This document shows positions 11,367 through 58,374 of a DNA stretch of 64,000 nt, piece after piece; position 1 is the first letter of the stretch, and every line of letters begins with the position of its first letter. A model generated the notes under the pieces. That model was not told the origin of the DNA and ran no database searches. It saw only the letters and a program-made list of their open reading frames with translations. The translations under genes were made by a program, and so were the position numbers. Where the stretch lies: NCBI GenBank assembly GCA_017476545.1, contig JAFUZP010000032.1, forward strand, positions 27,180 through 91,179, read 5' to 3'. This stretch comes from Alloprevotella sp. (lineage in GTDB: Bacteria; Bacteroidota; Bacteroidia; Bacteroidales; Bacteroidaceae).

Positions 11367-11446
11367 TGCCCCTAGGGTTAGTTCTCCGTAACCCTATAGT
11401 CAGTACGCCGTAACCCTAGGGTTAGGAACACGCATCCCTGGGGCTG
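11367..11446. repeat. 22-bp-period palindromic array 1
   Basis: Cores tgcccctagggtta (11367), taaccctatagtca (11389), taaccctagggtta (11411) and degenerate catccctggggctg (11433); linkers gttctccg, gtacgccg, ggaacacg. Confidence 0.9.
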
Positions 11447-11479
11447 GTTCTTGCCAGCTGTGGTGGCGGCAAAATGTAA

Positions 11480-11513
11480 GGCGGGACAGAGCCTTTTCGG
11501 ACTCTGCCCCGCC
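11480..11513 (-). terminator. Hairpin downstream of the lpxA paralog
   Basis: Minus strand ggcggggcagagtcc-gaaa-aggctctgtcccgcc followed by ttacattttg. Confidence 0.5.
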
Positions 11514-11533
11514 GGTTTTCATCGCAGTGCGGA

Positions 11534-12325
11534 CTATTCGGTACGGCGCACGATGCCGCGCTTGGAATTGCGGATAAAGTCCACGATATTGTCGATTTCC
11601 TCGCTCCCAGGTATCTGCTCCGTGATTTTTTGCAGAGCGTCCTCGAGCGCCTCATTGCCGGAATAGACAATACGGTAGGCGTTGCTGATGTGGCGCAGGA
11701 TGCGCTCCTGCATTCCGAACTTCTGGAGAATCGTGGCACTGACGCCATGGTAGCTGGCGGGTGTCCCACCGAGGATGATGTAAGGAGGCACGTCCTTCTG
11801 CACGACACAGCCGCTCTGAATCAGGCTGAACTGCCCGACGCGTGCACAGTGTTGCAGTATCACGCCACTGGAGAGTATCGCGTGGCTCTGTATTTCGCAG
11901 TCGCCCGCTACCTGTGAACCGATGCCTAAAACAGCATCGTCTCCAATGTGGACATCATGGCAGATATGCACTCCGTCCATCAGATAGTTGCGGTGGCCGA
12001 TAGTAGTAGCCGCGTCTTCCTCAAGTCCGCCGGCAATGACGACATTCTCACGGATACTGTTGTCGTCTCCAATGCGTACATGAGTGGCTTGTCCGCCCTG
12101 CCAACGGAAACTTTGAGGCGTTGCGCCGATGACGGCGTGCTGATAGACATGGTTGTTACGTCCGAGGGTCGCGCCGGGCAGGATGCTGGCATAAGCGTGG
12201 ATGATACACCCGTCACCGATGACGGTGTCGCGGTCAATATAAGCGAAAGGATGCACCTCGACATCCTTACCCAGCACGGCACTGGGGTGGATGTAGGCAA
12301 GCGGGCTGATACGTTCAGGATTCAT
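11534..12325 (-). CDS. lpxA: Acyl-ACP:UDP-N-acetylglucosamine O-acyltransferase (LpxA paralog)
   Basis: Hexapeptide repeats, IGDDNSIRENV, HICHD and DVPPY motifs, helical C-terminus ending SKRGIVR. Confidence 0.8.
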   Translation of the reverse strand: MNPERISPLAYIHPSAVLGKDVEVHPFAYIDRDTVIGDGCIIHAYASILPGATLGRNNHVYQHAVIGATPQSFRWQGGQATHVRIGDDNSIRENVVIAGGLEEDAATTIGHRNYLMDGVHICHDVHIGDDAVLGIGSQVAGDCEIQSHAILSSGVILQHCARVGQFSLIQSGCVVQKDVPPYIILGGTPASYHGVSATILQKFGMQERILRHISNAYRIVYSGNEALEDALQKITEQIPGSEEIDNIVDFIRNSKRGIVRRTE

Positions 12326-12338
12326 GGTAGGTACAGGT

Positions 12339-13739
12339 TTAGTTATTACCGCCGCCAAGAGCCTGATAAAGGCTTATGGCTGCTTGAATTTTGTCGAATT
12401 GTGCGGAAATAAGGTCCAGACGGGCTTGTAAGAGGGACTGCTGCGCCGAAAGTGTTTCCAGATAGGATGCGGAAGTGTCCGTACGGAAGAGAAATTCGGT
12501 GGTCTCCACCGCCTTCTCCAATTCTTTCAGTAGCGTCTGGTGTCCGCCGATGCGGGCCTGTGCAGCTTGGTAGTCTGAAAGCGCGTTGTTTACCTCATTG
12601 CCGACGGTCAGCAACTTCTGCTCAAAGTCAATTTGGGCCGCCTCCTGTTGTATTTTGGCCAGTTCCAGGTTTGCGCGGAGCTTGCCCTGAGCGAACAGGG
12701 GCTGCGTGAGCTGGCCGATAGCCGACAGGAGAATTTTTCCCGGATTAACGATTACGCCTGCGTTGTTCGTCCATCCCGCGCTGCCGGAGAGGGTTAGCTG
12801 CGGATAGAAGGCACCACGCGCACCGAGCACGCCATAGTAAGCGTATGCCATCTGTAATTCCGCAGCGCGTACGTCGGGGCGGTTTTGAAGCAACTGGAGG
12901 GGTACGCCTGCGGAAAGGCGTTCGGGCAGATGTGCATCGGCAAGGACGCCGCGCGGAATGCTGTGAGAAGTTTCATGCATCAGGGCACAAAGACTGTTCT
13001 CCACCTGCCTTATGCTGTTCTCCATCGCAGGGATGCCCGTCAGTATGGAGAGGCGGTTGGCCTTTGTCTGGGATACCGCTGCAGCGTTTGTCCAGCCAGC
13101 CTGCCACATGGCCTCCATTGCCTCGACATTCTTGCTCCAGATGTCGGCCGTGGCGCGTGTGGTAGCCAACTGCTCGTCTAGCATCTCAAGCGTATAATAG
13201 AGGTTGGCGACGGCGCAAATGATGCCGGTCTGAGTCGCTTGCCGCGCTGCCCGCGTCTGATAGAGGGTCATCTCACTTTGCTTACGGGCGTTGCGCAGCG
13301 TCCCGAATATATCGGCCTGCCAGCTTGCCTGTACAGGTATGTTGTACGTAGCGATGGCTTTGCCGAAATCAAAACTATTGACACTTGCCTGCGGCGATAC
13401 GGCTACTTGCGGCAGGAAGGCAAGCCGGGCAACCTTGAGACCCTGTTCGGCCTGCCGGATGGTCAGGTCGGCCTTGCGCAGGTCGGTATTCGCTTCCAAT
13501 GCGCGCTCTATGAGTGCCTGCAAACGCGGGTCGGTGAAGACTTCACGCCAGGGTAGGTTGCCAAAGTTGGCTGTGTCGGCAGCCAGCGTCCCGTCCAGCG
13601 AGGCCGTGTCGCGGAAGAGGGATTCGGGCACACCGAGGCTGTCAGGACGTGCGTAGTCGGAGTAGAGTGTCTTGTGGTGCTGGCAGGAGGCCATCGCTCC
13701 CGCACACATTATTATATATATATATAGGATCTTTTTCAT
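12339..13739 (-). CDS. RND efflux outer-membrane lipoprotein (NodT/TolC family)
   Basis: Lipobox MASC; WREVFTDPRL, LLQNRPDVRAAE and LYQALGGG motifs; start moved to MKKIL at 13739. Confidence 0.92.
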   Translation of the reverse strand: MKKILYIYIIMCAGAMASCQHHKTLYSDYARPDSLGVPESLFRDTASLDGTLAADTANFGNLPWREVFTDPRLQALIERALEANTDLRKADLTIRQAEQGLKVARLAFLPQVAVSPQASVNSFDFGKAIATYNIPVQASWQADIFGTLRNARKQSEMTLYQTRAARQATQTGIICAVANLYYTLEMLDEQLATTRATADIWSKNVEAMEAMWQAGWTNAAAVSQTKANRLSILTGIPAMENSIRQVENSLCALMHETSHSIPRGVLADAHLPERLSAGVPLQLLQNRPDVRAAELQMAYAYYGVLGARGAFYPQLTLSGSAGWTNNAGVIVNPGKILLSAIGQLTQPLFAQGKLRANLELAKIQQEAAQIDFEQKLLTVGNEVNNALSDYQAAQARIGGHQTLLKELEKAVETTEFLFRTDTSASYLETLSAQQSLLQARLDLISAQFDKIQAAISLYQALGGGNN

Positions 13740-16974: not shown

Positions 16975-18189
16975 TTAGAACGGGAGTTTACCGTCCTTAA
17001 TGTCCTGTTTCGCTTGTTCACGCATCTTCTGAGCTTCGGCTGGCGTGATGGGCTGTATTTCCTGACCGTTCTTCAAGTTCTGTACACCCTCGACAACAAT
17101 TCTGTCGCCCGCCTTGAGACCGTCTGTTACCACATAGTTCACGCCGTCGCTCTGCGCCTCTACCTTAATCTCGGTCGAGGAGACCTTGTTGTCTTTCCCT
17201 ACGACATAGACGAACTTCTTATCCTGAATCTCAGTTGTAGCGGCCTGCGGAATTATGATAGCCTGCGCTGTGAAGACGGGCATCTGGATATTGGCTGAGC
17301 CGCCACTGCGGAGGATGCGGTGCGGATTGGGGAAGGTAGCGCGCATCTGCACGGCACCTGTTGCTTGGTCGATAACTCCTCCGACGGCATCAACCGTGCC
17401 CTGCTCGCCATAGGTCGTCCCGTCAGCGAGTATTAACTTCACGGCTGGCATCTGGCGCATGGCCTCCTGCACGCCGCCATTGCCCGTCCTAGCCATTTCC
17501 AATAACTGCTTCTCCGTCATGGAGAAGTAGGCCTGCACGGAGCCGATGTCTGAAACAGTCGTGAAAGGCTCGGCCATACTCGGCCCTACGAGCGCACCCA
17601 CTTTGAGCGGAAGCATCCCTATCACGCCGCTGGTCGGTGCGGTAACGGTGCAGAAGCGCAGGTTATCGCGGGCTGCAGCCAGCTGTGCCTGTGCGGCGCC
17701 CAACTGTGCTTGTGCTGCCCCCAGCTGTGCCTTCAGGCTTTGCACTTGGTTCTCGCTCGTTTTGTACTCGTATTCGGAAATTATCTGTTTCTCAAAGAGC
17801 ATCTTCTTGTTCTGTTGGGTCAGCTCAGCAGTCGCGATATTACTCTTTACGACGTTAATCTGCTGTTGCGCGGACTTGACAGCCTCCTGCGCCTGGCGCA
17901 CAGCTGCGCTGAATTGCTCACTGTCAATGGTGAATAACGCTTGCCCGCGGCCCACGGTTTGTCCCTCTTTCACAAAAATGCGCGTAATGAAACCAGAAAC
18001 TTTCGGGCGGATTTCCACATCCTGCACGCCTTTTAGCGTTGCCGGATAGGTGGTGCTCAGCTCTGCCGAGGCGGGTTGCACGCTAATAACGGCATAATGG
18101 GTGTCGGCATCGGGCATTCCCTGCTGCTCTTTCTTGCAGGAACTTGCCAGCAAAGCGATGCTAAGCATGAATAGTGTGGTCTTTTTCAT
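16975..18189 (-). CDS. RND efflux periplasmic adaptor subunit
   Basis: Lipobox ASSC; EIRPKVSG motif, coiled-coil hairpin, RATFPNP, GLKAGDRIV. Confidence 0.93.
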   Translation of the reverse strand: MKKTTLFMLSIALLASSCKKEQQGMPDADTHYAVISVQPASAELSTTYPATLKGVQDVEIRPKVSGFITRIFVKEGQTVGRGQALFTIDSEQFSAAVRQAQEAVKSAQQQINVVKSNIATAELTQQNKKMLFEKQIISEYEYKTSENQVQSLKAQLGAAQAQLGAAQAQLAAARDNLRFCTVTAPTSGVIGMLPLKVGALVGPSMAEPFTTVSDIGSVQAYFSMTEKQLLEMARTGNGGVQEAMRQMPAVKLILADGTTYGEQGTVDAVGGVIDQATGAVQMRATFPNPHRILRSGGSANIQMPVFTAQAIIIPQAATTEIQDKKFVYVVGKDNKVSSTEIKVEAQSDGVNYVVTDGLKAGDRIVVEGVQNLKNGQEIQPITPAEAQKMREQAKQDIKDGKLPF

Positions 18190-18539: not shown

Positions 18540-18619
18540 CCCCCCTAGGGGCAGTCCGCCGTAACCATAGGGTTAGTTCGTCTTATCCCTGCGGTTAGTT
18601 TTTCCTAACCCTATGGGTA
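18540..18619. repeat. 22-bp-period palindromic array 2
   Basis: Cores cccccctaggggca (18540), taaccatagggtta (18562), tatccctgcggtta (18584), taaccctatgggta (18606); linkers gtccgccg, gttcgtct, gtttttcc. Confidence 0.9.
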
Positions 18620-18711: not shown

Positions 18712-21700
18712 TCAGAGAGCCTGTTCTTGCGACAATTCCGCAGCATCCACGTAGCCCTCCACCGATACCGCGTAATCAATCAGCTGCCCAAGCAAACTGT
18801 TCTGCCGTAACAGGCTCGGTTTTCCTACGAGGAAAAGTTGCTCGCGCGCCCGGGTCATCGCTACGTTCAGTTTGCGGTCAATAGCCTTGCCACCCTCACA
18901 AAATGTTTGCGATGTGAGGAACTGCAACTGTTGGCGGCGCACAGCGGTGAACCCATATATGATGACATCGCGCTCAGAGCCTTGGTAACGCTCCACCGTG
19001 TCAATGCTAATGTCCAATAACGGGTGGTCAGGTGACTCAGCAAGGCGTTGCAGTTCGTTCCGAATCTGGCTGATTTGATTTCTGTAGGGCACGATGACGC
19101 CGAGTGTCCGCTCCGCATCAAACGCCCTGCCGTTGTCTGTGTAAAGCCGCCATACAGTTGCGCAGATCTGAGCGACGAGTTTGGCTTCGGCTGCGTTCGT
19201 CTTACCGGGTGTCACGTCCCCGTTTTCAACGGCGAAGAACAGCAGTCTTTTTTGCGCCAACAACCGACCGAGTGTACCGCTCACCTTGGAAAAATTAAGG
19301 GATTCCCGCTGGTGCGGGAGTGGAACGGGCTGCAGTTTGCCACCATAGAAGGCTATGTTGGCGAAATCCGCTACTTCTGGATGCATACGACCTTGGTGGT
19401 TCATGTGATAGGTTAGGCCTGCCGCTTCCGCAACGGGAAGAAGTCGTTCAAAGAGGGAGTGGCGGCAGTCTGTCAGGCCGATAGCGCGGAGCGTATCGTC
19501 CGCTACGCGCGACTCCGCCTCGCTTTGTTGAACTACGGCGGGCAGCTGTTTGTGGTCACCTATCAGGACAAATTTCCGAATAGCCGGCTTCGAGTGATGC
19601 TTTACCGTAAATAAAGGTAATATTTGTGGTTCAATAATTTGTGATGCCTCGTCTATTATGCACAAATCAAAGGACTTCAGTTCAAACAGGTGCGGGGTGG
19701 CGCATAGCATAGTGGTTGTGGCCACAATCACTCGGGTGCGCACCATCAGTTCGCGAAACTCCTCTACATTCCGGCAACTGGTCGCTTGGTTATGCATCAG
19801 GTGAGGCCAACACTCGCGTGAACTGTTCACCTCGCGGCCGAGACGTATGAAAGAGATGCCGTTATGTACGAGCTTAGAGCAGACTTCATCAACGGCGCGG
19901 TTGGTGAAAGCCGCAAGTAGGATAGTCCTGTGTGGCGTCAGAAGGGCTTCGCGCAGTACGTTGAGCATGCCGAACGAGGTCTTGCCGGTTCCGGGAGGCC
20001 CGACTATGAGGTAATAGTCGCGGGCGCGCTTCGCAGCGAGCACGAGTTCGTTGAATGGTCCGTAATCCCCTAGAAGGCGGACGCTTGTGTCACATTCCGG
20101 GCTGCGCTGGTTAAGGAAGAGCGCACGCCTGTCCGCATCGACCTCCAACAAGGTAAAAAGTCCCCGATAGAGTGGCCTGTAAGTGTCCACGCTGTCGTGC
20201 TCCACCGCATAGCATCGGGCATCGCCAAACAAGTGGCGGTTCTTTTGTGCCGCAGTGAGGTGAAACTGCAAACTATCTGCCTGTAGCCGGGCAATTCGGC
20301 CACGCATCACGATTCCGTGCCGCACGTCCGGCTCACCGTCTGCGGGATAGCTGTAAAGCACGGCCGCATCGCCTTCCCTGAAAGTGCTGGCAGACAACGG
20401 CTGGTCAGCAGGCGGATAAAGTTCGACGGCCTCTACGCCGCCATCAGTCGAAAGTGCATATATCTTTAAACGGAGGGGGGCCAGGATGCTGCCACTCTGC
20501 AACTTTTCCTCGAAGGTGCTGCCCCAGAGCGCAGCAAAGCCGCCTGCCTCCCGCCCTGACGCTCCAATGCGTGACAAAACCTGCTCGCGGGCGATGAAGC
20601 GCAGCATACGGTAGAAATAGCTACGCTCCAGTGGCGGAGCCTGCTGCACCCGGTCCGTGATGCGCTGGAAGGCGGGGCGTTTATACTTAGCCCAAAACCG
20701 CACTGAATGGGCTGGGTTGAAGTTCAACGCATCGGGCGTTAGGTGACCGAGTACCCCCTCTCCGCCATCTGTAGCGAGCGCCAAATCTTCTGCGACCATC
20801 GCGTTACGCATCCGTATCGCTTCACCGAGGAGTTCCGGCGCGGCACCTTCAAGCATGAGACCATCGTCCGGATAGCGCGGATAGAGCAGGTAGGAATGGA
20901 TTTCCTCGTTAGTCAGTCCATAGGAATAGTGGAGCAGTGCGCGGTAGAGCAAGACTTGCACATAATGTGGCTCCTGGTGGTAACGTCCGAATGCGCGTTG
21001 GCCGCTCTTCAGCTCTATGAGTTCCGTGTAGTCTTCCTGCAGATAGTCCATACGCCCCTGTATGCCGAGCATTTCGCAGAAGAAGGAAGGTTCAAGTACC
21101 CCGTGCCTGAAATCAAAGGCAGGCTTGGTTCGCGCGCCGTCCCACCGCAGTAGTTTGCGCAGATTGTCCCGCTGGGCTGCCGCTTCTGTATGGAAATCAA
21201 AAGGGAATGTTGCGGTGGCTAATTCGAGGGCGTTCTGCCGGAAAAAAGCGCGGCTGCTGTCCGCGTATGCGGAGGGCGGGTTACCCTCTTGGGCATGTAC
21301 CACCTCATCAAAAAGCTGCCCGACGAAATTTCCGAGTAGCACATAAGCGTTGTTCTTCAGCGGCGGGAAAAACCGGCCCAGCAGATGCTGCAAGGGGGAT
21401 CGGGTATCGAAGCAGGCGGCAATGGCTGATATGTCAAGGAGGTAATCCGGCTCGAAAATGAATAGTTCGGCCGTCTCGCCGCTATCTGTGTGGTGGGGGC
21501 GGATAAGGTTGAGCTGGCAGCCGGGATAGAGAAGGGTGCGCAGCGACTCCCATTCGCCATAGAAGTTTTTCTGTGCGTAGCGGAAAGCGCGCGGTTCACC
21601 CGCGTGGTTTTGCCCATTATATATATAGATATATGTGTCATCCCATCGTTCCACGATGACGCGGAGGTAAGGGTGGGGGGCTCTGCCGGCAGCACTGAAC

Positions 21701-22119
21701 GAGGCTGTCCCAACTTTGGATAGTTCCGATGCTGCGATGGTGGGCGCATGAAATAGAGCGCGCAGTTCGTCCGTGGGAGGCTGTAAACCGGAAAGTTCGC
21801 AAACTAACGCGACAACTCTACCCATATCGGCCGGGAATGCGCGGGATAAAGTTTCCGAAGGCTGACTTTGGGTGTTCTGTGAGCGCGACCGAAAATTATT
21901 CAGGTGCTCAAAAGTATCGCGACGAATCGCGTCATTTCTCAGTAAAAGGAGGAGCTGAGGGTAGGGGGCGATGGGCTGGGTGTCGAAATCCTGCACCGCT
22001 TCGTCCAAAATGTCGCGAAAGATGCGCCGCAGCAGGGCATAGCGTGCGTGCAAGTCCGCAGAATTTTGAATCTGCTGCAGTTCGGCGAAGTATTCGTAAG
22101 CGGCTGCGGCGGAAAGCAT
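18712..22119 (-). CDS. Dna2/Nam7-like SF1 helicase with N-terminal PD-(D/E)XK nuclease domain
   Basis: Nuclease motifs GRMDYL...IELKSG...QVLLY; helicase motifs GPPGTGKT, DEASQ, GDHKQLP, YQGSERD and NVAMTRAR. Confidence 0.88.
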   Translation of the reverse strand: MLSAAAAYEYFAELQQIQNSADLHARYALLRRIFRDILDEAVQDFDTQPIAPYPQLLLLLRNDAIRRDTFEHLNNFRSRSQNTQSQPSETLSRAFPADMGRVVALVCELSGLQPPTDELRALFHAPTIAASELSKVGTASFSAAGRAPHPYLRVIVERWDDTYIYIYNGQNHAGEPRAFRYAQKNFYGEWESLRTLLYPGCQLNLIRPHHTDSGETAELFIFEPDYLLDISAIAACFDTRSPLQHLLGRFFPPLKNNAYVLLGNFVGQLFDEVVHAQEGNPPSAYADSSRAFFRQNALELATATFPFDFHTEAAAQRDNLRKLLRWDGARTKPAFDFRHGVLEPSFFCEMLGIQGRMDYLQEDYTELIELKSGQRAFGRYHQEPHYVQVLLYRALLHYSYGLTNEEIHSYLLYPRYPDDGLMLEGAAPELLGEAIRMRNAMVAEDLALATDGGEGVLGHLTPDALNFNPAHSVRFWAKYKRPAFQRITDRVQQAPPLERSYFYRMLRFIAREQVLSRIGASGREAGGFAALWGSTFEEKLQSGSILAPLRLKIYALSTDGGVEAVELYPPADQPLSASTFREGDAAVLYSYPADGEPDVRHGIVMRGRIARLQADSLQFHLTAAQKNRHLFGDARCYAVEHDSVDTYRPLYRGLFTLLEVDADRRALFLNQRSPECDTSVRLLGDYGPFNELVLAAKRARDYYLIVGPPGTGKTSFGMLNVLREALLTPHRTILLAAFTNRAVDEVCSKLVHNGISFIRLGREVNSSRECWPHLMHNQATSCRNVEEFRELMVRTRVIVATTTMLCATPHLFELKSFDLCIIDEASQIIEPQILPLFTVKHHSKPAIRKFVLIGDHKQLPAVVQQSEAESRVADDTLRAIGLTDCRHSLFERLLPVAEAAGLTYHMNHQGRMHPEVADFANIAFYGGKLQPVPLPHQRESLNFSKVSGTLGRLLAQKRLLFFAVENGDVTPGKTNAAEAKLVAQICATVWRLYTDNGRAFDAERTLGVIVPYRNQISQIRNELQRLAESPDHPLLDISIDTVERYQGSERDVIIYGFTAVRRQQLQFLTSQTFCEGGKAIDRKLNVAMTRAREQLFLVGKPSLLRQNSLLGQLIDYAVSVEGYVDAAELSQEQAL

Positions 22120-25792: not shown

Positions 25793-26778
25793 ATTTCGTT
25801 CTTTCTGCCGATTGTGAGTTCATAAGTGTCGTAACAAATGGCGCGCCCGCCGAGGCCTTCCTTCTGGAACAAGAGGCCATCGTTGAGCATCCGCCCGCCC
25901 TGTTCCGTACTGATGCCGAAGTCAAAGTAACGGCAACGGCCTGCGTATTCTCCCAGCAGGCAGTGGAACAGCAGGTCGAGTGCGCCAGTCTCCCGTCCTT
26001 GTACGTTTGCGGCAATATATTGCGCGTGAGCCACGTGCGGGGCGTTTATGTAAATAACGCTTCCGGCCAGGAGGCTTCCATCTGTGGCTCGCGCCGTGGC
26101 AAGGCGGATGCGGGTGGGAAACGCGTCCATAAGGTATGCCATTTCCGTGATTGTATGCACAGGGGCGGTATCATGCCGGGTTTGTAGCACTTCGGAAAGG
26201 ATTTTCCAGAATTCATCAAGTGCCTGCGGTTCATGCTCCCGCACTTCAATGCCAGATTTGCTGGCTTTCTGGAGTTTCCGGCCCCTGAGCGTCGAAAAGG
26301 GCAGGGGGGTGTCTAGGAGTATCGCACTGGAAATCGCCCGTGACGTGAGTTTTGCGCCTTGTCGGAAGAGCCAATAGAGCGCATCGTCAGCGGGGTAAGC
26401 GTGGTAAATGTAGGGTAGGGGCTTATAGACCCAGCGTTCCGCACCGCATTCCGTCGCATAAAAAACGGCAGCCTGGGCCAGCATTTCACCGACTTCCAGT
26501 GCTGTCGCTTCAGGATGTAGTACCAAACCTCCATACGTTAGGCCGCCATGTGACTCCACCATGCGTTCCGCGCGTCGCAAATTGGCGGGCAAGATTCCGC
26601 GAAGGTGGCCCTTTGCATTGCGGAACAGGAGGGAAACGTCCTCAAAGCGGCTTTGGTGGTAATCCATATACGCCCGCTCGAAAAGGAAGGAAGAGCAACG
26701 CGACACTGCAACCAGCCCGTCCCATTCGGAGCGTGCTTCCATAGCGTATTTATCCAGCGTCAACTTACTTCTTTCCAT
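25789..26778 (-). CDS. GNAT/FemAB-like acyltransferase
   Basis: [14 protein letters not shown] and FDFGIS...[10 protein letters not shown] motifs; sits between fdtA-like and fdtB-like genes. Confidence 0.8.
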
Positions 26779-27205
26779 GATTTAACAACTCCTGTTCAAA
26801 TAGCTCGTAATCATTTATATATGCATTAGGCTCAAACGGTCGGTCGGAGAGGCAGACGCAGAGCGCATCCTGCGAAAAATTCAGCAGGCGACACCAACAC
26901 ATAGGTGGAATGAAGAGTCCCTTTTCCGGACTGTCCAGATGGTAACGGACGCAGCCTTCGCTGTCCGTAAGTTCCACGTCCAAACTACCTTGTACGGCAA
27001 AGAGTAGTTCTGAACAGAGCCGATGGGCGTGATAACCCCGTTCTTGTCCAGCCGGAACACCACTAATCCAAAAAACTCGCTCCGTCCGAAACGGCATCAG
27101 CTCGGCACCATTTTCAACGGCGCAGAGGTTTCCGCGCGCATCTGCCGCGCGTGGAAAAGTGATGAGTCGGTGCAAATGCTTTTCAGTTGGGGCTTGTTCG
27201 GTCAT
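26765..27205 (-). CDS. FdtA/QdtA family sugar 3,4-ketoisomerase (cupin)
   Basis: DARGNL, RVFWI, RGYHAH and YINDY motifs; start moved to MTEQ at 27205. Confidence 0.88.
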   Translation of the reverse strand: MTEQAPTEKHLHRLITFPRAADARGNLCAVENGAELMPFRTERVFWISGVPAGQERGYHAHRLCSELLFAVQGSLDVELTDSEGCVRYHLDSPEKGLFIPPMCWCRLLNFSQDALCVCLSDRPFEPNAYINDYELFEQELLNHGKK

Positions 27206-27212
27206 ACATCGG

Positions 27213-27244
27213 CAAAAGTAATTCTTTTTGCTCAAATCCGCAAA
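27213..27244 (-). promoter_or_regulatory. Full Bacteroidetes sigma-A promoter for the glycan operon
   Basis: TTTG (27241-27244), 20-nt gap, then TACTTTTG (27213-27220). Confidence 0.7.
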
Positions 27245-27601
27245 TTTTGTGCGGTTTTTTACTCGCATAGCTCGTGTATGACTTTTCTCCAGGTGGGGGA
27301 GAATTGCCCGGGACACCGCCATAGTTTGTTTTGGATTTCGCAAAATTAAATTAAACATAATACCGATACGATTATTTCGCGGGGATATTTTCTCGCAAGA
27401 CTTACCATAACTGACCGTGCAGCTATGCCGGCGCGGCCAAGACTAAACGAAAGGCCCAGCACGGACAGCGGTAAAAGCGAAGATCCAGAGGGAAACTGAC
27501 CGCTACGGCCAGCCGGAGTTGGAAAAATCCGCCGGACGAATTATAAATCCTACCGGCGATATCCGCATCGGAGCACCGCTAACGCGCTCGATTATGTGCC
27601 A

Positions 27602-27967
27602 TGTTTCACGGTCACGGGTGCCCTGAGATTGCGTATAATTCATGAAAGAAATCCGCACCGGGGCTGCAGCATAGTCTTTGCGCGCGGTAATAATGCGCTA
27701 TTTATACAAAGAAACACTGTTTTCTGCCCTAAAACGGAGAAATCGCAGTGGAATTAGTTGCTTTTATGCCCGTTTCGGAGAAATCTACCCGTAGGGTTAG
27801 GCGGTATTATCCATAGGGATAGTTCATTTTAACCATAGGGTTACGGACAACTAACCCTACGGTTAGCGAGAAATTAACGCAGCGGTGACTCTTTCCAGAG
27901 CCGAATTGACTACTTTTTTCCGCTGGAACAGTCGGATGTCAGTGTCAAAATCATTGAACGTGAAACA
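27602..27967 (+). mobile_element. Non-coding ~366-bp MITE-like element, copy A, containing array 3
   Basis: Ends TGTTTCACG / CGTGAAACA (inverted repeat extends to 12 bp, 27599-27970); homologous to the reverse complement of 42663-43014; mobility is inferred and no transposase was seen. Confidence 0.65.
27786..27888. repeat. 22-bp-period palindromic array 3
   Basis: Cores tacccgtagggtta (27786), tatccatagggata (27808), taaccatagggtta (27830), taaccctacggtta (27852), plus taacgcagcggtga (27875, after a 9-bp linker). Confidence 0.9.
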
Positions 27968-42429: not shown

Positions 42430-42585
42430 AGTTGGTATGTTGTTTTTGGGATTGTGGGCAATGTGCAACAACCCGCTGCGGGAACTTGCCAAAGCCCGGA
42501 ATGATTTTTTCAGGATGGTAGTGAGGGAGGAATGGCTTGGCGGTGCGGCGAACCGCTGCACGGCTAAACCAGCTCAATCGCGGTG

Positions 42586-42593: not shown

Positions 42594-42662
42594 CGAAAAA
42601 AAACGGGTTCAGCAAGAATTTAGCGTTTTTTTTGCATGCATAACGTTAGGAGAAGGCGAAAA

Positions 42663-43014
42663 TGTTTCACGCTGGAAAAGTAAAAAGTATTGACATGGGA
42701 ACATGCGCGTTCTAGCACTAAAAATGCGCGTCCGGGGGATATTCTTTCCTGTCCCGTGGGGGAATTTTCACTAACGTAGGGGTTAGTTTTCCGTAACCCT
42801 ATGGGTAATTTGCGCTAGAAGTACCGTTACGAGGCCACCAACGAAGGGCTATCTTGGCGTTCCTGCTGGGATAAAACAGAAAAACAGACCAGAAAATGGC
42901 CTGTTTTCGGTGATATAGGACAAAATTCCCTCACGGAACTGGCTGCGTTACAGCCGGCTCAGGTTTAGTCTGCAGGAAATGCACGATTCTCCGAGCCTGC
43001 GTGACCGTGAAACA
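42663..43014 (-). mobile_element. Non-coding ~352-bp MITE-like element, copy B (inverted), containing array 4
   Basis: TGTTTCACG at 42663-42671 and CGTGAAACA at 43006-43014; the reverse complement starts TGTTTCACGGTCACG exactly as copy A does. Confidence 0.65.
42728..42873. repeat. 22-bp-period palindromic array 4 (eroded)
   Basis: Good cores taacgtaggggtta (42772) and taaccctatgggta (42794); in-phase decayed cores at 42728, 42750, 42816, 42838 and 42860. Confidence 0.8.
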
Positions 43015-43027
43015 CACTGCCCTAGAA

Positions 43028-43612
43028 CTATGATTTTTCCCCGAGGTAGCGGCGGAAATAGTCCCGCAATGCGGTACGCGCCCCACTGAGGCGTTCCTCC
43101 CAAATCTGCATGGAGTTCTGCCCGACCACATCGGTTACGTATTTTACGGCTACGAAAGGTATGCCGAACTCCCTGCATACAAGGGCTTCGGCAAAGGCTT
43201 CCATGTCAATGACGTCACCGTCCACATGGTCGGCAGCCGTCACAAAATCTTCCCCGGTGTTGCAGGTAAAAATTCCTTGCGCATGCTGGCCGCAAGTGAT
43301 GGTGGGCAGTTCGGGGAAAGGGACTGTGGCCTCGCTACGTACTTCAGGCGAAATACTGTCAAATTTCTGCCGCGCTATGTCGCGGTCAACGAAGCGACGG
43401 CATACAAAAATGTCACCGACGGAATGGCACAATGTGCCCGCTGAGCCGATGTTAAGCACAGCATCGGGATGGTGTTCAGCAATGGCGCGGGAAAGCCGGG
43501 CGGCGGCATAGGGTTTTGAGATGCCCGTGATGCAGGTGACACTCTCCCACCCCGGCAGTTCCACGGGAACGACCTCTTCCGGCAGGGCGAATGCTAAGAG
43601 AAGTTTCTTCAT
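43028..43612 (-). CDS. Nucleosidase (MTA/SAH nucleosidase / PNP superfamily)
   Basis: LNIGSAG, TGEDFV, DMEAFA and KYVTD motifs. Confidence 0.85.
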   Translation of the reverse strand: MKKLLLAFALPEEVVPVELPGWESVTCITGISKPYAAARLSRAIAEHHPDAVLNIGSAGTLCHSVGDIFVCRRFVDRDIARQKFDSISPEVRSEATVPFPELPTITCGQHAQGIFTCNTGEDFVTAADHVDGDVIDMEAFAEALVCREFGIPFVAVKYVTDVVGQNSMQIWEERLSGARTALRDYFRRYLGEKS

Positions 43613-47155: not shown

Positions 47156-48289
47156 TTAGCGCCGTCCGCCGAAGCCCCGGCCACCACCACCGGAAGAGCT
47201 GCTGCCACCTCCGCCAAAGCTGCGGCCTCCGCCGGAGAAGCTCCCACCAGAGGAACTACGCCCGGAGCCGGAACTGGAGGAGCCAAAGCCCCTACCCTGC
47301 GATGAGCGGGAACCGCTGCTCGGTGCGGTCTGCGTGTTGCGCGTGGTGGAACGCGGCGCGGTTGTGCCGGAAGAGTTAGAGGTACCTGAGCCGAAACTGC
47401 GCCCGCGATAGGTGCCGGTGGAGCTGGAAGTACCGAAATTGCGCGTTGAACGCCCGGGGTTGGTAGTCGTACCGTTCATGCGGTTGTTTGTAGCCGTGCC
47501 ATTAGCCGTTCCGAAGCGACGCGTGCCGCTCGTACCGGCCAGCGTTCCGCTTCCGAAGCGGCCGCCTGTGCGTGAGCCAGAGCCTACACCGAGACTGCCC
47601 GAACGCCCTGCCGCGTGGTTTCCACGGAAGCTACCCCAGCCCCGGCGGCCATCGCCATAGGCGTAGGTGTGTCCGTAGTAACCTCCCCAGCCCGGACGGC
47701 TGTACCAACCGCCATAATAAGGATGGTGCCAGCCCCAGCTGCCGTAGTACCAGGGGGAGTACCAGCCGCTCCATCCCCAACCTGCATACCAACCATGGCT
47801 ACGCCAGCCCCATGACCAGCCGTACCAAGGATTGTACCAAGGGTCGTACCAGCCATGCCAGGAACGCCACGTCCAGTTATAGAATGGGTCGTAGCAGAAC
47901 GTGTCATAGTAGTCCCAATAATACGGACTTGCCACGACAACGCATCCCGGCGCGTGGAAGCGCACAATGCGGGCGGTGCATTCACCGTCATTGTCGTAGC
48001 TGCGGCGGTCATCGTAGTCCGCTTCCTCGTCCTGTGCGGGAGCGGTCGTGGAACTGCCACGGCGGTTGTAGTCGTCCACGTCCCGATTTGAGCGGCGTCC
48101 GGCATACCAGTTGTCCGCATCGTCGTCTGTGGTGGCTATCTCTTCATATTCGGAACGGTAGGTCTTAACATCTTTCTTCGTATTTTCCTTCGCGGCCTTG
48201 GAAGGTACGAAGTACACGTCATCGTCCTGCGCATAGCCGCTGAAGGCTACAAAGCAGGCAAGGGCTGAGAGTAAAAGCGACTTTTTCAT
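47156..48289 (-). CDS. Exported low-complexity protein (Trp/Tyr/Gly-rich block and Gly/Ser/Arg tail)
   Basis: Signal peptide; DDVYF and DVDDYNRR motifs; co-oriented upstream of the FadL-like gene; -7 box at 48414-48421. Confidence 0.75.
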   Translation of the reverse strand: MKKSLLLSALACFVAFSGYAQDDDVYFVPSKAAKENTKKDVKTYRSEYEEIATTDDDADNWYAGRRSNRDVDDYNRRGSSTTAPAQDEEADYDDRRSYDNDGECTARIVRFHAPGCVVVASPYYWDYYDTFCYDPFYNWTWRSWHGWYDPWYNPWYGWSWGWRSHGWYAGWGWSGWYSPWYYGSWGWHHPYYGGWYSRPGWGGYYGHTYAYGDGRRGWGSFRGNHAAGRSGSLGVGSGSRTGGRFGSGTLAGTSGTRRFGTANGTATNNRMNGTTTNPGRSTRNFGTSSSTGTYRGRSFGSGTSNSSGTTAPRSTTRNTQTAPSSGSRSSQGRGFGSSSSGSGRSSSGGSFSGGGRSFGGGGSSSSGGGGRGFGGRR

Positions 48290-48621: not shown

Positions 48622-48745
48622 TAACCGTAGGGATAGTTCTTCGTAACCCTGCGGTTAGTTTCTCGTAACCCTAGGGTCAGTTTACCGTAACCCTAGGGGT
48701 GGTTAGCCGATACCCTGCGGTCAGGAATGTCTCACCGCAGGGGGC
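48622..48745. repeat. 22-bp-period palindromic array 5 (six units)
   Basis: Cores at 48622, 48644, 48666, 48688, 48710 and 48732; linkers gttcttcg, gtttctcg, gtttaccg, gttagccg, ggaatgtc. Confidence 0.93.
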
Positions 48746-48758: not shown

Positions 48759-50867
48759 TCACTTCAAATATTTGTCCAGGAAGCGGAAGAAGGTGCGTTG
48801 CCACAGGATGCCGTTCTGCGGCTTCAGCACCCAGTGGTTCTCATCCGGGAAGAGGAGGAGCTGGGCATCAAGGCCACGCATGCGCGCGGCGGTGAAAGCG
48901 CTCTCTGCCTGCGTATATTCGATACGGAAATCGCGCTGTCCGTGGATGCAGAGTATGGGTGCGGTCCACTTATCCACATAGAGATGCGGGCTTTCACGGT
49001 AGGCTTTCTGCATTTGCCCGTCGGCCGCTTTCAACCAAGGCGCAGAACCGAGGTCCCAGTTGGGGAACCACATTTCCTCTGTCTCCACATACTGCTGCTG
49101 GGCGTTATAGATACCGTCGTGTGCGATAAGGGCTTTGAAACGCCCATCATGGTGTCCGGCGAGCCAATATACGCTGAAACCGCCAAAGGACGCACCGACC
49201 GCGCCGAGGCGGTCAGCATCTACGTAACGCTCCTTGCAGAGGTCGTCGATGGCGGAAAGATAGTCCTGCATACATTGCCCTGTGTAGTCGCCGCTGATGG
49301 CCTCCAGCCATTCCATGCCGAAGCCGGGAAGGCCGCGCCGGTTGGGGGCTATGATGATGTAACCGTTGGCCGCCATAATCTGGAAGTTCCAGCGGTAACT
49401 CCAGAACTGGCTGACGGGCGATTGCGGGCCACCTTCGCAGAAAAGCAGGGCGGGATACTTTTTCGAGGGATCGAACTGCGGCGGATAGATTACCCAGCAG
49501 AGCATATCCTTTCCGTCCGTAGTTTTTACCCAGCGCTCCCTCACGTCGCCCACGGCGAGCGTGCTGTAAATCCCGGCATTCACTTCCGTAAGCCGCTGCG
49601 CGATGGGGCGCAGGTCATGATGCGCCCGGCGGGTTGTCTCCACGCTGAGTGCGTAAAGGTCGTCCGGGTATTGCATTGAATGGCGCTTGAGGAGGAGTTG
49701 CTTCCCGTCGGCGGAGAGGCCGCAAACAGAATAGTCGGCCACGTCATCGGTGAGCTGCGCCACGTTTCCATCTATGTCAGTGCGGTAAACATTCGTCCGC
49801 CCGTGCCAAACGCCGCAGAAGTAAAGCGTTTTGCTGTCGGCTGCCCAGACAAACTTGTCCACGCCGCTCTCAAAGGACTCTGTCACGAAGCGGTGCTTCC
49901 CCGTCTTGAGGTCAAAAACGCAAAGACGCAGGCGGTCGCTCTCATACCCGTCGCGCTCCATAGACAGCCAGGCCACGTAGCGGCCGTCTGGCGAGAACTG
50001 CGGGTCTTGGTCATAACCGGGAAAACTTGCGTCACGGTTCACTTGCTGGTGTTCAAGGCTTCGGGCGAAGTCTGTATTGTATGTCTTAGTATTGTGTGCC
50101 TCGTCCTTGCAGAGGTTGCGCACGGTACGCTTCCCGGCGACATCATAGAGATAGATATCGGAGTCGGTAGAGATGGCGTAGTCGCGCCCCGTTTTTTTGC
50201 GGCATGTGTAGGCAATGGTTTTTCCGTCGGGGCTCCATGCCAGTTGCTCCACGCCCCCGAAAGGCTCCATCGGGCACTCAAAGGGTTCGCCGTCAAGGAT
50301 GTCTCTCTCGTTTGTTAGGCCGGCTCCGTCGTAGTCGGCCACAAAGGGGTGCGGCACTTCGCTTACGTAATGATCCCAATGCTTATACATCAAATCGTTT
50401 ATAACCATCCCGCTGGCCTCGGGGAGGTCGGCTTCTTTGGCAGCTATGCTCCCGTGCATCGGTACCATGCGCACCAAAATGACGCGTGACCCATCTGGTG
50501 AGAACAGGAAACCATCCACCCCCTCGGCAATAGCAGCGGCAGAGCTACCGTCGGCCTGCCCGACATAAAGGTTGCCGCCGCGCAGAAAGGCCACGCGACC
50601 GTCGGGAAGATAGGCGGGAGAGCCTCCTTGTGCTACCTGACGGCGTGTGCCGTCAGGCTGCTGCTCCCAAATGCGGCTCGTACCACGGTTCTGCTTTTTA
50701 CTATAATGTGTGACGGAATAAAGTAGCTTGCCGTCGGGCGAAAAGACGGCACTTCCAATGCGTCCCATCTCCCAAAGGCGTTCCGGGGTGAGGAGCTCCG
50801 TCTGCTGTGCGCCGGCGTTGATGGCGCAGCCAAGGGCGATAGTCATAACTATTTGCTTTGCGTTCAT
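48759..50867 (-). CDS. S9 family peptidase, dipeptidyl-peptidase 5-like
   Basis: Signal peptide, beta-propeller SPDG repeats, CEGGPQ, GASFGG (Ser), DFR (Asp) and DENHW (His). Confidence 0.9.
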   Translation of the reverse strand: MNAKQIVMTIALGCAINAGAQQTELLTPERLWEMGRIGSAVFSPDGKLLYSVTHYSKKQNRGTSRIWEQQPDGTRRQVAQGGSPAYLPDGRVAFLRGGNLYVGQADGSSAAAIAEGVDGFLFSPDGSRVILVRMVPMHGSIAAKEADLPEASGMVINDLMYKHWDHYVSEVPHPFVADYDGAGLTNERDILDGEPFECPMEPFGGVEQLAWSPDGKTIAYTCRKKTGRDYAISTDSDIYLYDVAGKRTVRNLCKDEAHNTKTYNTDFARSLEHQQVNRDASFPGYDQDPQFSPDGRYVAWLSMERDGYESDRLRLCVFDLKTGKHRFVTESFESGVDKFVWAADSKTLYFCGVWHGRTNVYRTDIDGNVAQLTDDVADYSVCGLSADGKQLLLKRHSMQYPDDLYALSVETTRRAHHDLRPIAQRLTEVNAGIYSTLAVGDVRERWVKTTDGKDMLCWVIYPPQFDPSKKYPALLFCEGGPQSPVSQFWSYRWNFQIMAANGYIIIAPNRRGLPGFGMEWLEAISGDYTGQCMQDYLSAIDDLCKERYVDADRLGAVGASFGGFSVYWLAGHHDGRFKALIAHDGIYNAQQQYVETEEMWFPNWDLGSAPWLKAADGQMQKAYRESPHLYVDKWTAPILCIHGQRDFRIEYTQAESAFTAARMRGLDAQLLLFPDENHWVLKPQNGILWQRTFFRFLDKYLK

Positions 50868-50954
50868 TGCTGAGGACGTTTTGCTTTTAATCAAAGGTAT
50901 GTTGCCGCGGCCTGGGCGCTGCGAAGTGAACAGCCGCTCCGCCGCCACCGAAAC

Positions 50955-56357: not shown

Positions 56358-56417
56358 ATAACCGCGTCTTTTGGGGTTGCTTCTCCGCAAAGATAAGAAA
56401 ATACTTCCGTACTTCGC

Positions 56418-58106
56418 TCACGCTTTCCGGCCCACCCGCGCTTCTACCACGTTCACGGCGTGGTCGCCAAGTCGCCCACAAGCATCCACCATATCCGAAA
56501 AGACCGATCCAAGAGCATAGCTGCAACGCCTGTTGTTCACGTCAGTTGCGATTTGTTCCCTGAGATTTTCCCGTGCCGCATGGATTTCTGTTTCCAGGTG
56601 CTTAGTCTTCCGGAGGTGCTGCGGCCGCCCGCTCTTTTGGACGCGCTCCATCTGCTCCAACAGCTCGTCAGCCAAGGCCATCAGCCTGCGCAAGTCAGCG
56701 TAACGCTCCTGCGTGAAATCACCGGTCAAATCCAGCTTGCGATGTAGTGCCCGGGTGATATTGTAGCATACGTCCCCCATGCTTTCCAGTTCGCCTAATA
56801 CGCGAAGCAATCCGCGCACCTTGTGTTTTGTCGCATCACTTAGGTGCGCATTGCCCACATGGGTAAGAAATGTTGCGATTTCCTGCTCCATACGATCAGT
56901 AATCCCCTCGTACTTCTCAATGCGCGCCGATATCTCGGCTGCACGCTTTGGATCGTGTTCGTCCAACAGGGCGCGCACCATACCGAACATGCGTCGCACG
57001 ATTTCCGCAAAGTGCGATGTTTCCCGTTGCGCCTGCAATAACGACAATTCCGGCGTTCGTAGCAGGCCGCCCTGAATGGGGCGCAACCGCACTTTTTCCT
57101 GCACTTGCGGACGAATAAGGCGGTAGCAAATCCGTACTATCTGTGGGATAAAGCCAACCAACAGCAGTGTGTTTGTCAGATTAAAGCACGTGTGGAACAA
57201 GGCCAGCACAATGGGAAGTCGGGCACTGTCTATCGCGGACGAATCCGGGTCGCAGCCTGCCATGTGGCATACCAGTGTGACAAAAGGAAAAAACACGGCC
57301 ATAACCCACACCACGCCCAGCACATTGAAAAGCAGGTGGGCGAGTGCTGCCCGCCTGGCCTGTGTATTAGCACCCAGCGCAGCTAGGTTAGCAGTCATCG
57401 TCGTCCCGATATTTTCCCCTAGGACGAGGGCTATACCTAAGGATATGGGCAGTACGCCTGTTGAGCAGAGCATGATGGTGATGGCCATCACTGCCGCAGA
57501 AGACTGTACGACACAGGTTATAAAGGTCCCGATGAGCAGGAAGGTGAGAACGGTCAGGTAGCTCTGCGTATCAAACGAACTGAAAAAAGCAACTACCTCG
57601 GCATTGTGTTCCAAGTCTAGTGACCGCCCCGCCGCGCTTAATTGCACGAGCGAAAAGAACAGGAATCCTATACCGAAAAGGAAATCGCCGGCATAGCGGT
57701 GCTTTCGGTAGTGAATAAGCACTATTCCCGCAAAAAAAGCGGGAAATGTCACCAACGTCAAGTCCGCGTTATAGCCCAGTGACATAATCCAAGCCGTAAG
57801 CGTAGTTCCGATATTCGCTCCCATTATCACGCTGATAGCCTGCGCCAAGGTCAGCAGTCCTGCATTGACAAAGGAAACAGTCATTACGGTTGTAGCCGAG
57901 GAGGACTGCACGATGGCCGTTATGACCACCCCGGTAACGATGCCTGCCATGCGGTTTGAGGTCATGGCGGCCAAGATGTGGCGGAGCTGGGCACCGGCCA
58001 TTTTTTGTAGTGCTTCACTCATCATTTTCATGCCATAGATGAGCAAGGCCAGCGCTCCTAAGACGTGCAGTGCGATTATAAGATAGTTCTGCGTATTTTC
58101 TTCCAT
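56418..58106 (-). CDS. Na/Pi cotransporter family protein with PhoU-like C-terminus
   Basis: Duplicated QSSS/QSSA and GANIGTT/GENIGTT motifs; helical PhoU-type tail. Confidence 0.9.
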   Translation of the reverse strand: MEENTQNYLIIALHVLGALALLIYGMKMMSEALQKMAGAQLRHILAAMTSNRMAGIVTGVVITAIVQSSSATTVMTVSFVNAGLLTLAQAISVIMGANIGTTLTAWIMSLGYNADLTLVTFPAFFAGIVLIHYRKHRYAGDFLFGIGFLFFSLVQLSAAGRSLDLEHNAEVVAFFSSFDTQSYLTVLTFLLIGTFITCVVQSSAAVMAITIMLCSTGVLPISLGIALVLGENIGTTMTANLAALGANTQARRAALAHLLFNVLGVVWVMAVFFPFVTLVCHMAGCDPDSSAIDSARLPIVLALFHTCFNLTNTLLLVGFIPQIVRICYRLIRPQVQEKVRLRPIQGGLLRTPELSLLQAQRETSHFAEIVRRMFGMVRALLDEHDPKRAAEISARIEKYEGITDRMEQEIATFLTHVGNAHLSDATKHKVRGLLRVLGELESMGDVCYNITRALHRKLDLTGDFTQERYADLRRLMALADELLEQMERVQKSGRPQHLRKTKHLETEIHAARENLREQIATDVNNRRCSYALGSVFSDMVDACGRLGDHAVNVVEARVGRKA

Positions 58107-58132
58107 GAGTCCGGTATTTATGTTTTCCGCCA

Positions 58133-58190
58133 CAAAGTTATGCAAGGCCGGTCAGACTGCCACTATGCCGGACGTTACGAAGATGTTACA
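58133..58190 (-). promoter_or_regulatory. -7 box plus 11-bp-spaced direct repeat (Pho-box-like) upstream of the Na/Pi cotransporter
   Basis: TAACTTTG at 58133-58140; plus-strand GTTAC at 58174 and 58185. Confidence 0.55.
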
Positions 58191-58294
58191 TTCGTACTTC
58201 GTGCGCATGGCCGGGAGAAACCGGATGTGCCACCACACGGGAAGGTTCGCGAAGTCGGGGAGGCCGGGAGAAATCCAGCAGGGCCGCAAACGCT

Positions 58295-58374
58295 TAACCA
58301 TAGGGGTACGGAGAACTAACCGCAGGGTTACTGCGAACTAACCCTATGGGTACGAACGACTAACCCTATGGATA
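58295..58374. repeat. 22-bp-period palindromic array 6 (linkers inverted)
   Basis: Cores taaccataggggta (58295), taaccgcagggtta (58317), taaccctatgggta (58339), taaccctatggata (58361); linkers cggagaac, ctgcgaac, cgaacgac. Confidence 0.92.

Follow-up and report, generated by a model that had tools for sequence, protein, structure and literature searches.

In 2020, Subirana and Messeguer reportedly surveyed constant-period bacterial satellites in the Journal of Bacteriology. Satellites with periods of 20 to 23 nucleotides (nt) are non-coding, and the authors of one study speculate on polymerizing proteins that would serve nucleoid stability (PMC8161180); the accessible part of that text concerns Bacillus and contains none of the terms Bacteroid, Prevotella, and palindrom. 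A second system, found in the Bacteroidales, is BrickBuilt of Porphyromonas gingivalis, a species-restricted intergenic repeat of 23-nt tandem units, whose 19 copies consist of 1 to 23 near-identical, spacerless units with a leader and a tail, insertion sequence-like terminal inverted repeats, and some target duplications (PMC4596501). The REP, BIME, and REPIN elements are short, extragenic, imperfect palindromes that form mosaics, exceed 100 copies, and are species specific (PMC3333891, PMC3733652, PMC3116915, PMC6006769); their hairpins carry a conserved GTAG (or CGTC) tag at the foot. The HU-HIG proteins are a clade of the HU/IHF superfamily (PF18291; PMC5499826). Here, we analyze intergenic arrays of a 14-bp quasi-palindrome repeated every 22 bp, which were noticed at six places in a 64,000-nt stretch (the window) of the genome of Alloprevotella sp. 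(GCA_017476545.1, contig C21:27180-91179). About 170 such cassettes of fixed size, most with four units, form a grid of ~10 kb across this genome, and we consider it about an even chance (a probability near 0.5) that they are double-stranded, protein-bound boundary platforms between transcription units.

The arrays resemble the 20- to 23-nt satellites (PMC8161180) in being non-coding and species specific, in their period near two helical turns, in having at least four units, and in the occurrence of several families per genome. They differ in that their units are quasi-palindromic with free 8-bp linkers, are not homogenized, and number four and in that the arrays are evenly spaced and promoter phased. 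Whereas BrickBuilt likewise is intergenic and species restricted within the Bacteroidales, the Alloprevotella family comprises ~170 loci of four divergent palindromic units without common termini, terminal inverted repeats, or edge duplications. Unlike REP, BIME, and REPIN elements, its cores end in GTAG at only 6.8% of positions (TTAG, 23%; TTAC, 20%), and its arrays lack hairpin selection and a flanked RAYT gene, have a fixed helical period, often lie in divergent gaps, and are overdispersed. Membership in that group was rejected on tag, hairpin, RAYT, and spacing; a selfish origin, which the preliminary description had named as the alternative to a binding platform, is retained as the main rival. 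The same description recognized no known repeat family here, which stands for the sequence itself (the window arrays have no match in Rfam) and not for the general kind, since satellites of constant 20- to 23-nt period have been described (PMC8161180).

A literature search returned no description of this family, the four-unit size, the even spacing, the promoter phase, or a link to HU-HIG proteins; the supplements of the 2020 survey, PMC6749651, and PMC6006769 might list Bacteroidales families. The exact consensus was encountered in the literature only in a paper on telomere fusion, and the accessible part of a genome-language-model preprint (10.64898/2026.09.22.753630) does not describe the arrays. 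Constant-period 20- to 23-nt satellites and the nucleoid speculation are already published; the even spacing, the placement outside promoters, and the arm conservation are new.

The source genome (G000) spans 1.98 Mb in 46 contigs and is 80% complete; a hexamer-scored open reading frame finder called 1475 genes in it (85.5% coding; gene starts are approximate). It contains 424 sites with at most two mismatches to the consensus and 617 with at most three, compared to 0 and 12 to 14, respectively, in two order-3 Markov simulations. The genome-wide spacing peak expected by the preliminary description is present: 408 of 428 neighbor distances below 200 bp are exactly 22 bp. Arrays were called with a symmetrized core profile and at least two units, and 53 single sites were excluded from later counts. 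Of the 173 phased arrays obtained, 118 have four units; the rest have two (10 arrays), three (8), five (24), six (12), or eight (1). The in-phase positions flanking four-unit arrays score at background level. After merging, 171 loci (14.4 kb in total) remain, with major arrays on every contig longer than 17 kb. These 22-bp palindrome arrays, typically of four units, are termed the major family and the other 21- to 23-bp arrays of the genome sibling families.

By gap type, 90 loci are tandem, 35 convergent, and 31 divergent; a further 12 reach the edge of a contig, and the remaining 3 overlap the end of a predicted gene. The absence of arrays within coding sequences, first seen in the window, extends to all 171 loci apart from those 3 ends. 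A location between the 3′ end of one minus-strand gene and the promoter of the next, also proposed, describes the window, where nearly all genes are on the minus strand and the pattern arises for that reason, but not the genome with its mixture of gap types. One array occurs with identical flanks on two contigs, in an apparently duplicated segment (C17:410-6964 and C34:16559-23358).

Each unit consists of a 14-bp core, TAACC-N4-GGTTA, and an 8-bp linker with the consensus GTTYTYCG in either orientation. The CC/GG pairs of the core are 95 to 98% invariant, and TpA steps stand at offsets 0, 6, and 12 in every unit. The core had been described as a palindrome, which is correct overall but not at its center: of 696 cores, 503 are altered on one side only at positions 6/9 and just 4 on both sides (93 expected), and the perfect palindrome ranks only fifth in abundance among core variants, so that quasi-palindrome is the better term. 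Most linkers of an array share one orientation (all of them in 80 of the four-unit arrays), and the orientations of core and linker are nearly independent. Core identity is 0.76 within and 0.74 between arrays, and linker identity is 0.52 and 0.34, respectively. Since cores are no more alike within than between arrays and the orientations are nearly independent, the arrays are best described as mosaic sequences set on a constant lattice and not as tandem copies from recent slippage. Nearest-neighbor arrays are only 80% alike. Array edges show no duplication at offset 0 (k = 4 to 8; ≤0.6%), with a slight excess if 10 bp of slack is allowed (k = 6; 9.2% versus 4.7%). No conserved terminus was found in the flanks beyond a linker-like 5 bp, and shared flanking sequence is restricted to 20 promoter-linked paralogous arrays.

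The strongest regularity concerns spacing. The 130 within-contig intervals between major arrays have a mean of 10.6 kb, a coefficient of variation (CV) of 0.48, a gamma shape of 4.3, and a maximum of 28 kb. Five null models (placement in gaps of ≥150, 250, 300, or 400 bp or at operon boundaries) gave CVs of 0.72 to 0.89, and 0.48 was never reached in 3000 draws of each. Under a sixth null model with 550 boundaries, defined by a promoter box or convergent gene ends, 45 intervals below 5 kb were expected and 10 were seen, the minimum in 5000 draws being 30. Arrays of this genome are thereby shown to exclude one another over about 5 kb. Several of the short intervals adjoin genes of a duplicated family of 200-amino-acid (200-aa) proteins. 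Sibling arrays also lie farther from major arrays than expected (median, 6.0 versus 4.6 kb; P = 0.005). When long intervals were screened for hidden decayed arrays, only two candidates emerged, and core strength has no relation to the distance to the neighboring array. Arrays are sparsest in the 10-kb bins of the bottom GC decile (0.56 versus 0.81 to 1.0 per bin; rho = 0.18; P = 0.02).

Congener G308, which has a different 21-bp sequence, was also evenly spaced in a 200-kb sample (10 to 11 arrays; CV, 0.34 to 0.36; P ≤ 0.005). A pattern for its whole 2.76-Mb contig, which recovers 7 of the 11 arrays of this first sample, finds 78 loci; only 4 of 77 intervals are shorter than 10 kb, compared to 18.9 expected (0 of 20000 draws), and removal of the first sample leaves 4 compared to 18.3. 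Arrays number 4 to 9 per 200 kb but 2 and 2 in the first 400 kb of this contig, on which the origin position was not located. G386 equals the source genome in array density. Of the four genomes compared, two show a strong even-spacing effect.

The arrays are also positioned relative to promoters, which were located by TAnnTTTG, presumably the −7 promoter box of Bacteroidetes. With the 200-aa family left out, 141 sides face a promoter, and 91 of these have such a box beyond the array, always at least 45 bp away, versus 4 of 169 sides facing a 3′ end; in tandem gaps it stands upstream of the array in 1 of 92. The box positions indicate that the arrays occupy space outside transcription units. 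Edge-to-box distances range from 45 to >300 bp with a periodicity of ~10.8 bp (peak, 10.85; n = 81 after removal of similar flanks; R = 0.33; P = 0.005 over periods of 7 to 16), compared to an R of 0.14 to 0.17 for three control distance sets. The periodicity holds across three box definitions at 200 to 260 bp (P = 0.002 to 0.04), and odd and even contigs share the same helical phase (3.4 and 3.8 bp; P = 0.013 and 0.005).

Conservation of the arms was seen in 20 arrays copied along with a single promoter, which in most cases belongs to the 200-aa family. Their pairwise identity is 0.81 in the arms, 0.54 in the linkers, and 0.52 in the 50-bp flank, and the −7 box is constant at 56 to 59 bp from the array edge. 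Three of 60 paralogous linkers look inverted in place. A major array lies 5′ of 19 of the 31 200-aa genes tested (P = 9e-12); fully decayed paralogous arrays would escape arm-based detection. Many of these genes stand in a cassette of major array, promoter, gene, sometimes an HU-HIG gene, and then a sibling array. The 35 paralogues (e.g., C42:14507-15181, C9:17322-17876, and C9:135458-136141; none in the window) have a conserved leader, Y-x-x-P-x-M-x-V...LLA-x-S, a Cys-rich variable body, and a conserved C terminus. The leader resembles, in our estimation, the leader motifs of ribosomally synthesized and posttranslationally modified peptides. The family has no Pfam match, Atlas hits are all sub-0.9, and homologues were found only in a few Alloprevotella-like records.

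Geometry appears more durable than sequence. A scan of relatives, as the preliminary description had proposed, found the motif of the source genome abundant in none of 147 congeners (10 with one or two matches) and none of 250 family genomes (5 with single matches). The congeners have 21/22-bp families of their own, several with the same G(T5)CC/GG(A5)C linkers, and a skeleton of TAS-N6-STA-N10 is dominant in G034, G341, and G391, with matches in 19 of 148 genomes. Lineage-specific cores on a common TA-S-N6-S-TA skeleton are thus shown by sequence comparison within the genus. The closest congener, G329 (CTP synthase 91% identical), lacks the family of the source genome and is heavily rearranged. 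A synteny comparison over 718 kb of its 1.6 Mb (382 gaps scored) included 38 array gaps for which G329 has an orthologue and found breaks in 37 of them, in 43 of 47 array-free gaps of ≥250 bp (P = 0.39), and in 68 of 87 array-free gaps of ≥150 bp (P = 0.007). Arrays as rearrangement hot spots were rejected, the break rate not being separable from gap size. The 21-bp arrays of G386 (C1, L179 to L198) often have inverted terminal units at both ends (self-complementarity, 0.66 versus 0.60), and this family is more REPIN-like than that of the source genome even though linkers are shared.

Among the stretches listed in a motif scan of GTDB (46 of about 120), 11 are from Bacteroidales-type genomes and contain longer 22-bp arrays with related cores. 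Two unclassified Bacteroidales genomes carry related arrays at one orthologous gap, with four versus six units (L034/L063 and L066), and the cores of L034 are nearly identical to those of the source genome. Many others among the stretches listed, from Actinomycetota and Chloroflexota, hold two-copy sites; those of L023 to L064 (Actinomycetota, Chloroflexota, and others) are TACCCC-N2-GGGGTA, exactly 22 bp apart and upstream of genes. These resemble what we take to be CsoR/RicR operators and are probably of that type, with the same geometry as the arrays. A metagenome scan gave two matches, one of them telomere-like and neither of the source family, and a viral scan gave four unrelated two-copy matches.

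A DNA-binding partner was sought among the genes of the source genome. A PF18291 search gave ten matches, which by our own sorting are seven HU-HIG-like and three classical HU/IHF proteins. Besides the major family, the genome contains 53 further 21- to 23-bp arrays of several families, and one lies within 500 bp 3′ of five of the seven HU-HIG genes, versus 60 of 1468 other genes (P = 3e-6); a sixth was found by eye, so that six of the seven paralogues stand beside sibling 22/23-bp arrays. Close HU-HIG paralogues are accompanied by the same sibling family. Outside this genome, an HU-HIG gene lies beside 3 of 11 Bacteroidales-type array loci, and runs of 22/23 bp occur at 6 of 12 HU-like loci of named Bacteroidales records and 6 of 11 viral-contig loci (two duplicates dropped), compared to 3 of 44 control windows (P = 0.002), with none at periods of 25/26; the named records with the link are from Parabacteroides, Bacteroides, and Phocaeicola. 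HU-HIG paralogues expand, diverge rapidly, and have a proposed role in conflict, and no associated DNA repeats are reported in the accessible text (PMC5499826). From their positions, the genes near sibling arrays could encode readers or be mere cargo, as the 200-aa family seems to be. In G323, an HU-HIG match is followed directly by a 22-bp array (C99:15754-16225). The sole HU-HIG gene of the source genome without an array (C10:9516-10715) is the first of three genes in a cassette that also encodes a small membrane protein and a putative cell wall enzyme, next to a tyrosine recombinase gene. A classical HU gene 116 bp from a major array (C43:2777-3049) was not counted, because 318 of the 1475 genes have one within 500 bp.

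The suggested RAYT/HUH transposase partner was not borne out: the 80% complete genome contains one weak Y1_Tnp gene with no array within 6.9 kb, although an unassembled gene is possible. This gene (C25:4921-5919; L104:1252-2250) encodes 332 aa with an HuH motif and a long C-terminal extension and has no flanking repeats. Matches at E ≤ 1e-20 occur in 35 of 148 congeners (34 besides the source genome), and RAYT as a mobilizer was rejected because the gene was not found in the array-bearing G308, G386, and G329. The CsoR/RcnR family (PF02583) has no match in the 80% complete source genome, while a control matched in 6 of 14 genomes, and CsoR/RcnR operators were rejected for lack of this cognate gene. 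DUF6261 has no match in the source genome, yet its control also matched nowhere.

Our preferred reading, that the arrays are protein-bound boundary platforms, starts from the observed lattice, modal copy number of four, placement, spacing, and arm conservation. Each array would be the docking place for four dimers of a protein that bends DNA, with an HU-HIG-type paralogue as the most likely candidate. The 22-bp period would align the dimers on one face of the DNA, and the TpA steps would permit bending. The bound complex could limit the spread of transcription-driven supercoils or read-through and in this way delimit domains of ~10 kb. Spacing may be kept by selection against both redundant close copies and long empty stretches, new arrays would arise by duplication or gene conversion, and template switching may flip spacers in place. 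The cooperative binding platform of the preliminary description gains support from the four-unit size, the contrast between arms and linkers, the 31 divergent gaps, the even spacing, and the weak promoter phase. Binding, bending, the nature of the reader, and the part that description gave to nucleoid organization or insulation are inferred; the closest functional model is the BIME of Escherichia coli, which is reported to bind IHF, Pol I, and gyrase and can act as a topological insulator (PMC3333891).

Several findings weigh against this reading. The promoter phase, a moderate signal noticed post hoc, loses significance when only distances below 120 bp are taken (n = 38) and does not recur in G386 (n = 28; P = 0.69). 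The arm conservation is partly built in, because arrays were detected by an arm profile. The overall CV in G308 is only mildly low (0.82 versus 0.98; P = 0.045), spacing in G386 is not significant (CV, 0.72; P = 0.12 to 0.28; 35 arrays in 400 kb), and G034 shows no regular spacing in 260 kb (CV, 0.94 to 1.01). Main-family arrays in G329 are sparser (9 in 718 kb), and G398 has none in 120 kb; a dense grid is therefore not essential in the genus. One of the six window arrays, at 42728, has decayed. No HU-HIG gene adjoins a major-family array in the source genome, the nearest being 1.2 kb away, and PF18291 matches occur in 147 of 148 congeners, whatever arrays they carry. HU-HIG proteins have also been argued to be unlikely sequence-specific transcription factors (PMC5499826).

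Some known kinds of site can be set aside. The preliminary description's recombinase landing pad finds little support, as linkers vary between sites, the genome has only two tyrosine recombinases (presumably XerC/D), and there is neither an orientation bias nor a clear excess of breaks; the heterogeneous linkers and the two recombinases also led us to reject lox/dif-type sites. Linker polarity follows neither local GC skew (85:76) nor gene strand (75:86), which are local proxies in a draft genome, and a replichore-polarized motif of the KOPS/Chi type was ruled out by this lack of bias. CRISPR arrays have unique spacers of about 25 to 45 bp between repeats and were excluded here by 8-bp linkers that recur between loci and by the lack of an Rfam CRISPR match. 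The Noc-NBS, SlmA-SBS, RacA-ram, and MatP-matS systems use 12- to 14-bp palindromes bound by dimers at tens of chromosomal sites; these are single sites, often within genes and confined to or excluded from a region of the chromosome, whereas the present arrays are about 170 phased, intergenic, four-unit cassettes.

The main rival is a selfish or near-neutral repeat, spread by a trans-acting enzyme or gene conversion, with spacing produced by recombinational loss of close pairs or by insertion immunity near existing copies, as with Tn7/Tn3/Mu-like elements, and avoidance of genes and promoters by purifying selection only. We regard it as rather unlikely, but much of the turnover is as it would predict: the motif is abundant only in the source genome among 148 congeners and 251 family genomes, several array families share one genome, density varies widely among congeners, arrays travel with a 35-member paralogous gene family, and nearly all array gaps comparable with G329 are synteny breaks. 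The last point is tempered by array-free large gaps, which are broken almost as often. A weak Y1/RAYT-like gene exists, but it is distant from every array and was not found in the array-rich G308, G386, or G329. The arrays lack an edge duplication at offset 0 and, outside the paralogous set, a common leader or tail, and even nearest neighbors are only 80% alike. Their arms are conserved relative to linkers and flanks, neighboring arrays do not avoid direct orientation (60 direct, 58 inverted), and REPIN doublets are placed randomly in extragenic space (PMC3116915), unlike these arrays. Even if the arrays are selfish, an exclusion distance of 5 to 10 kb for an 80-bp repeat would require a new mechanism. 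That each array is instead an upstream operator or activating site at which a global regulator of transcription tunes the adjacent promoter seems improbable to us. The helical phase to the −7 box, its fixed distance in the 20 paralogous promoters, and the similar two-copy 22-bp motif in many Actinomycetota and Chloroflexota would suit such a role; the 35 arrays in convergent gaps face no promoter, box distances elsewhere vary widely, no CsoR/RcnR gene was found in the 80% complete genome, and a regulon would not show even spacing.

A function at the RNA level, as terminators or 3′ stabilizers like E. coli REPs, is very improbable for the family as a whole, although some copies may double as terminators. 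Dinucleotide shuffles fold less well than five of the six window arrays (z = −2.0 to −5.1), yet real arrays (−31.5/−32.1 kcal/mol) fold no better than random core/linker chimeras (−33.3 kcal/mol), arm pairing with neighbors (0.79 to 0.80) hardly exceeds that with random partners (0.78), and self-complementarity (0.57) is below that with other arrays (0.63). Covariation is similarly divided, with 55 compensatory changes at pair 3/12 (about 42 expected) and pair 6/9 broken in most cores. In tandem gaps, arrays are nearer to the upstream stop than to the downstream start, a sense T-rich run follows the array in 17 of 90 cases (2 antisense), and linker polarity is 53 with versus 35 against transcription; the 31 arrays between divergent promoters do not fit, and hairpins need neither an exact 22-bp period nor even spacing. 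Least probable, in our judgment, is a self-marking grid in genetic conflict, in which a site peculiar to the lineage and a rapidly evolving HU-HIG reader would label native DNA every 10 to 20 kb or more densely. It would draw together the conserved geometry with rapid sequence turnover, the low density in the lowest-GC bins, the 28-kb ceiling on intervals, and the expansion and proposed conflict role of HU-HIG paralogues (PMC5499826), but the GC trend is weak, no effector nuclease or defense gene is linked, and arrays also flank HU-like genes on viral contigs.

An extension of the boundary-platform reading is doubtful. It postulates an insulator code of Bacteroidales chromosomes: cassettes of four sites, phased at two helical turns and set ~10 kb apart, would be read by rapidly evolving HU-HIG paralogues with one sequence family per paralogue, and geometry and spacing would be kept while site and reader turn over. 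Such a system would recall the centromere paradox and would imply topological domains with sequence-defined boundaries or, alternatively, marking of self DNA. To our knowledge, bacterial topological domains of ~10 kb are generally regarded as lacking boundaries fixed by sequence. So far, two-turn satellites have been catalogued without a function, and the present family makes both their function and the question of domain boundaries experimentally approachable; HU-HIG proteins, themselves without a function, gain a candidate substrate.

All six window arrays of the preliminary description were recovered (Table 1); the five intact ones contain 21 cores, and the sixth is decayed. Its units at 42816, 42838, and 42860 were said to keep phase despite decay. 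Their full-core scores of −9.8, −6.9, and −0.5 bits are below acceptance, but the claim holds because three right arms stand in 22-bp register (background frequency, 5e-5). Contigs from metagenome runs X1 and X4 span the arrays with zero differences (one study, of which X1 is possibly the source of the assembly), and one contig from run X6, of a second study, covers 42661-43148 with 5 differences; as far as tested, the arrays are not an assembly artifact. The runs containing window DNA are gut metagenomes, with no RNA run among those listed.

Table 1. Arrays of the major family in the window, with flanking genes (window positions; gene strand in parentheses)
Feature	Position	Strand	Context
Four-unit array	11367..11446	.	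3′ of an lpxA-like gene (11534-12358, −) and 5′ of a U32-peptidase-family gene (9326-11191, −)
Four-unit array	18540..18619	.	3′ of a helicase-like gene (18712-22119, −) and 5′ of an RND efflux operon (16975-18189, −)
Four-unit array	27786..27865	.	Separates a PAP2/LpxE-like gene (28124-28669, −) from a sugar-biosynthesis operon (FdtA-like, 26765-27358, −)
Decayed array	42728..42873	.	Upstream of rho (40450-42561, −); one intact core at 42794-42807
Partial cores of the decayed array, 22-bp phase	42728, 42750, 42772, 42816, 42838, 42860		
Five-unit array	48622..48723	.	3′ of dpp5 (48759-50948, −); other neighbor, an unannotated gene (47156-48289, −)
Four-unit array	58295..58374	.	Separates a DASS transporter gene (58435-60267, −) from a Na/Pi symporter gene (56418-58145, −)

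Among the sibling arrays are two 23-bp palindromic families, one of 15 loci (e.g., C18:20572 and C37:43424) and one of 9 loci (e.g., C11:66712 and C36:17797), the latter placed after HU-HIG and 200-aa family genes. A 23-bp sibling array at C18:87720-88188 lies directly beside a gene whose N terminus resembles that of Cas2. A long, homogeneous 22-bp satellite of another sequence (C6:1, C8:56759, C17:1, C21:93490, C34:23531, and C35:1) breaks the assembly at five contig ends.

Within the window itself, every called gene from 286 to 61290 is on the minus strand, over 61 kb. The genes include those for a type IX secretion system and a Bacteroidetes-type PhoBR, which place the DNA in the Bacteroidota; homologues of one of its proteins carry the name Alloprevotella sp., in keeping with that likely genus. 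The Rho protein is 703 aa long with a long N-terminal insertion, and a DMP19-like DNA-mimic gene lies at 30491-31027.

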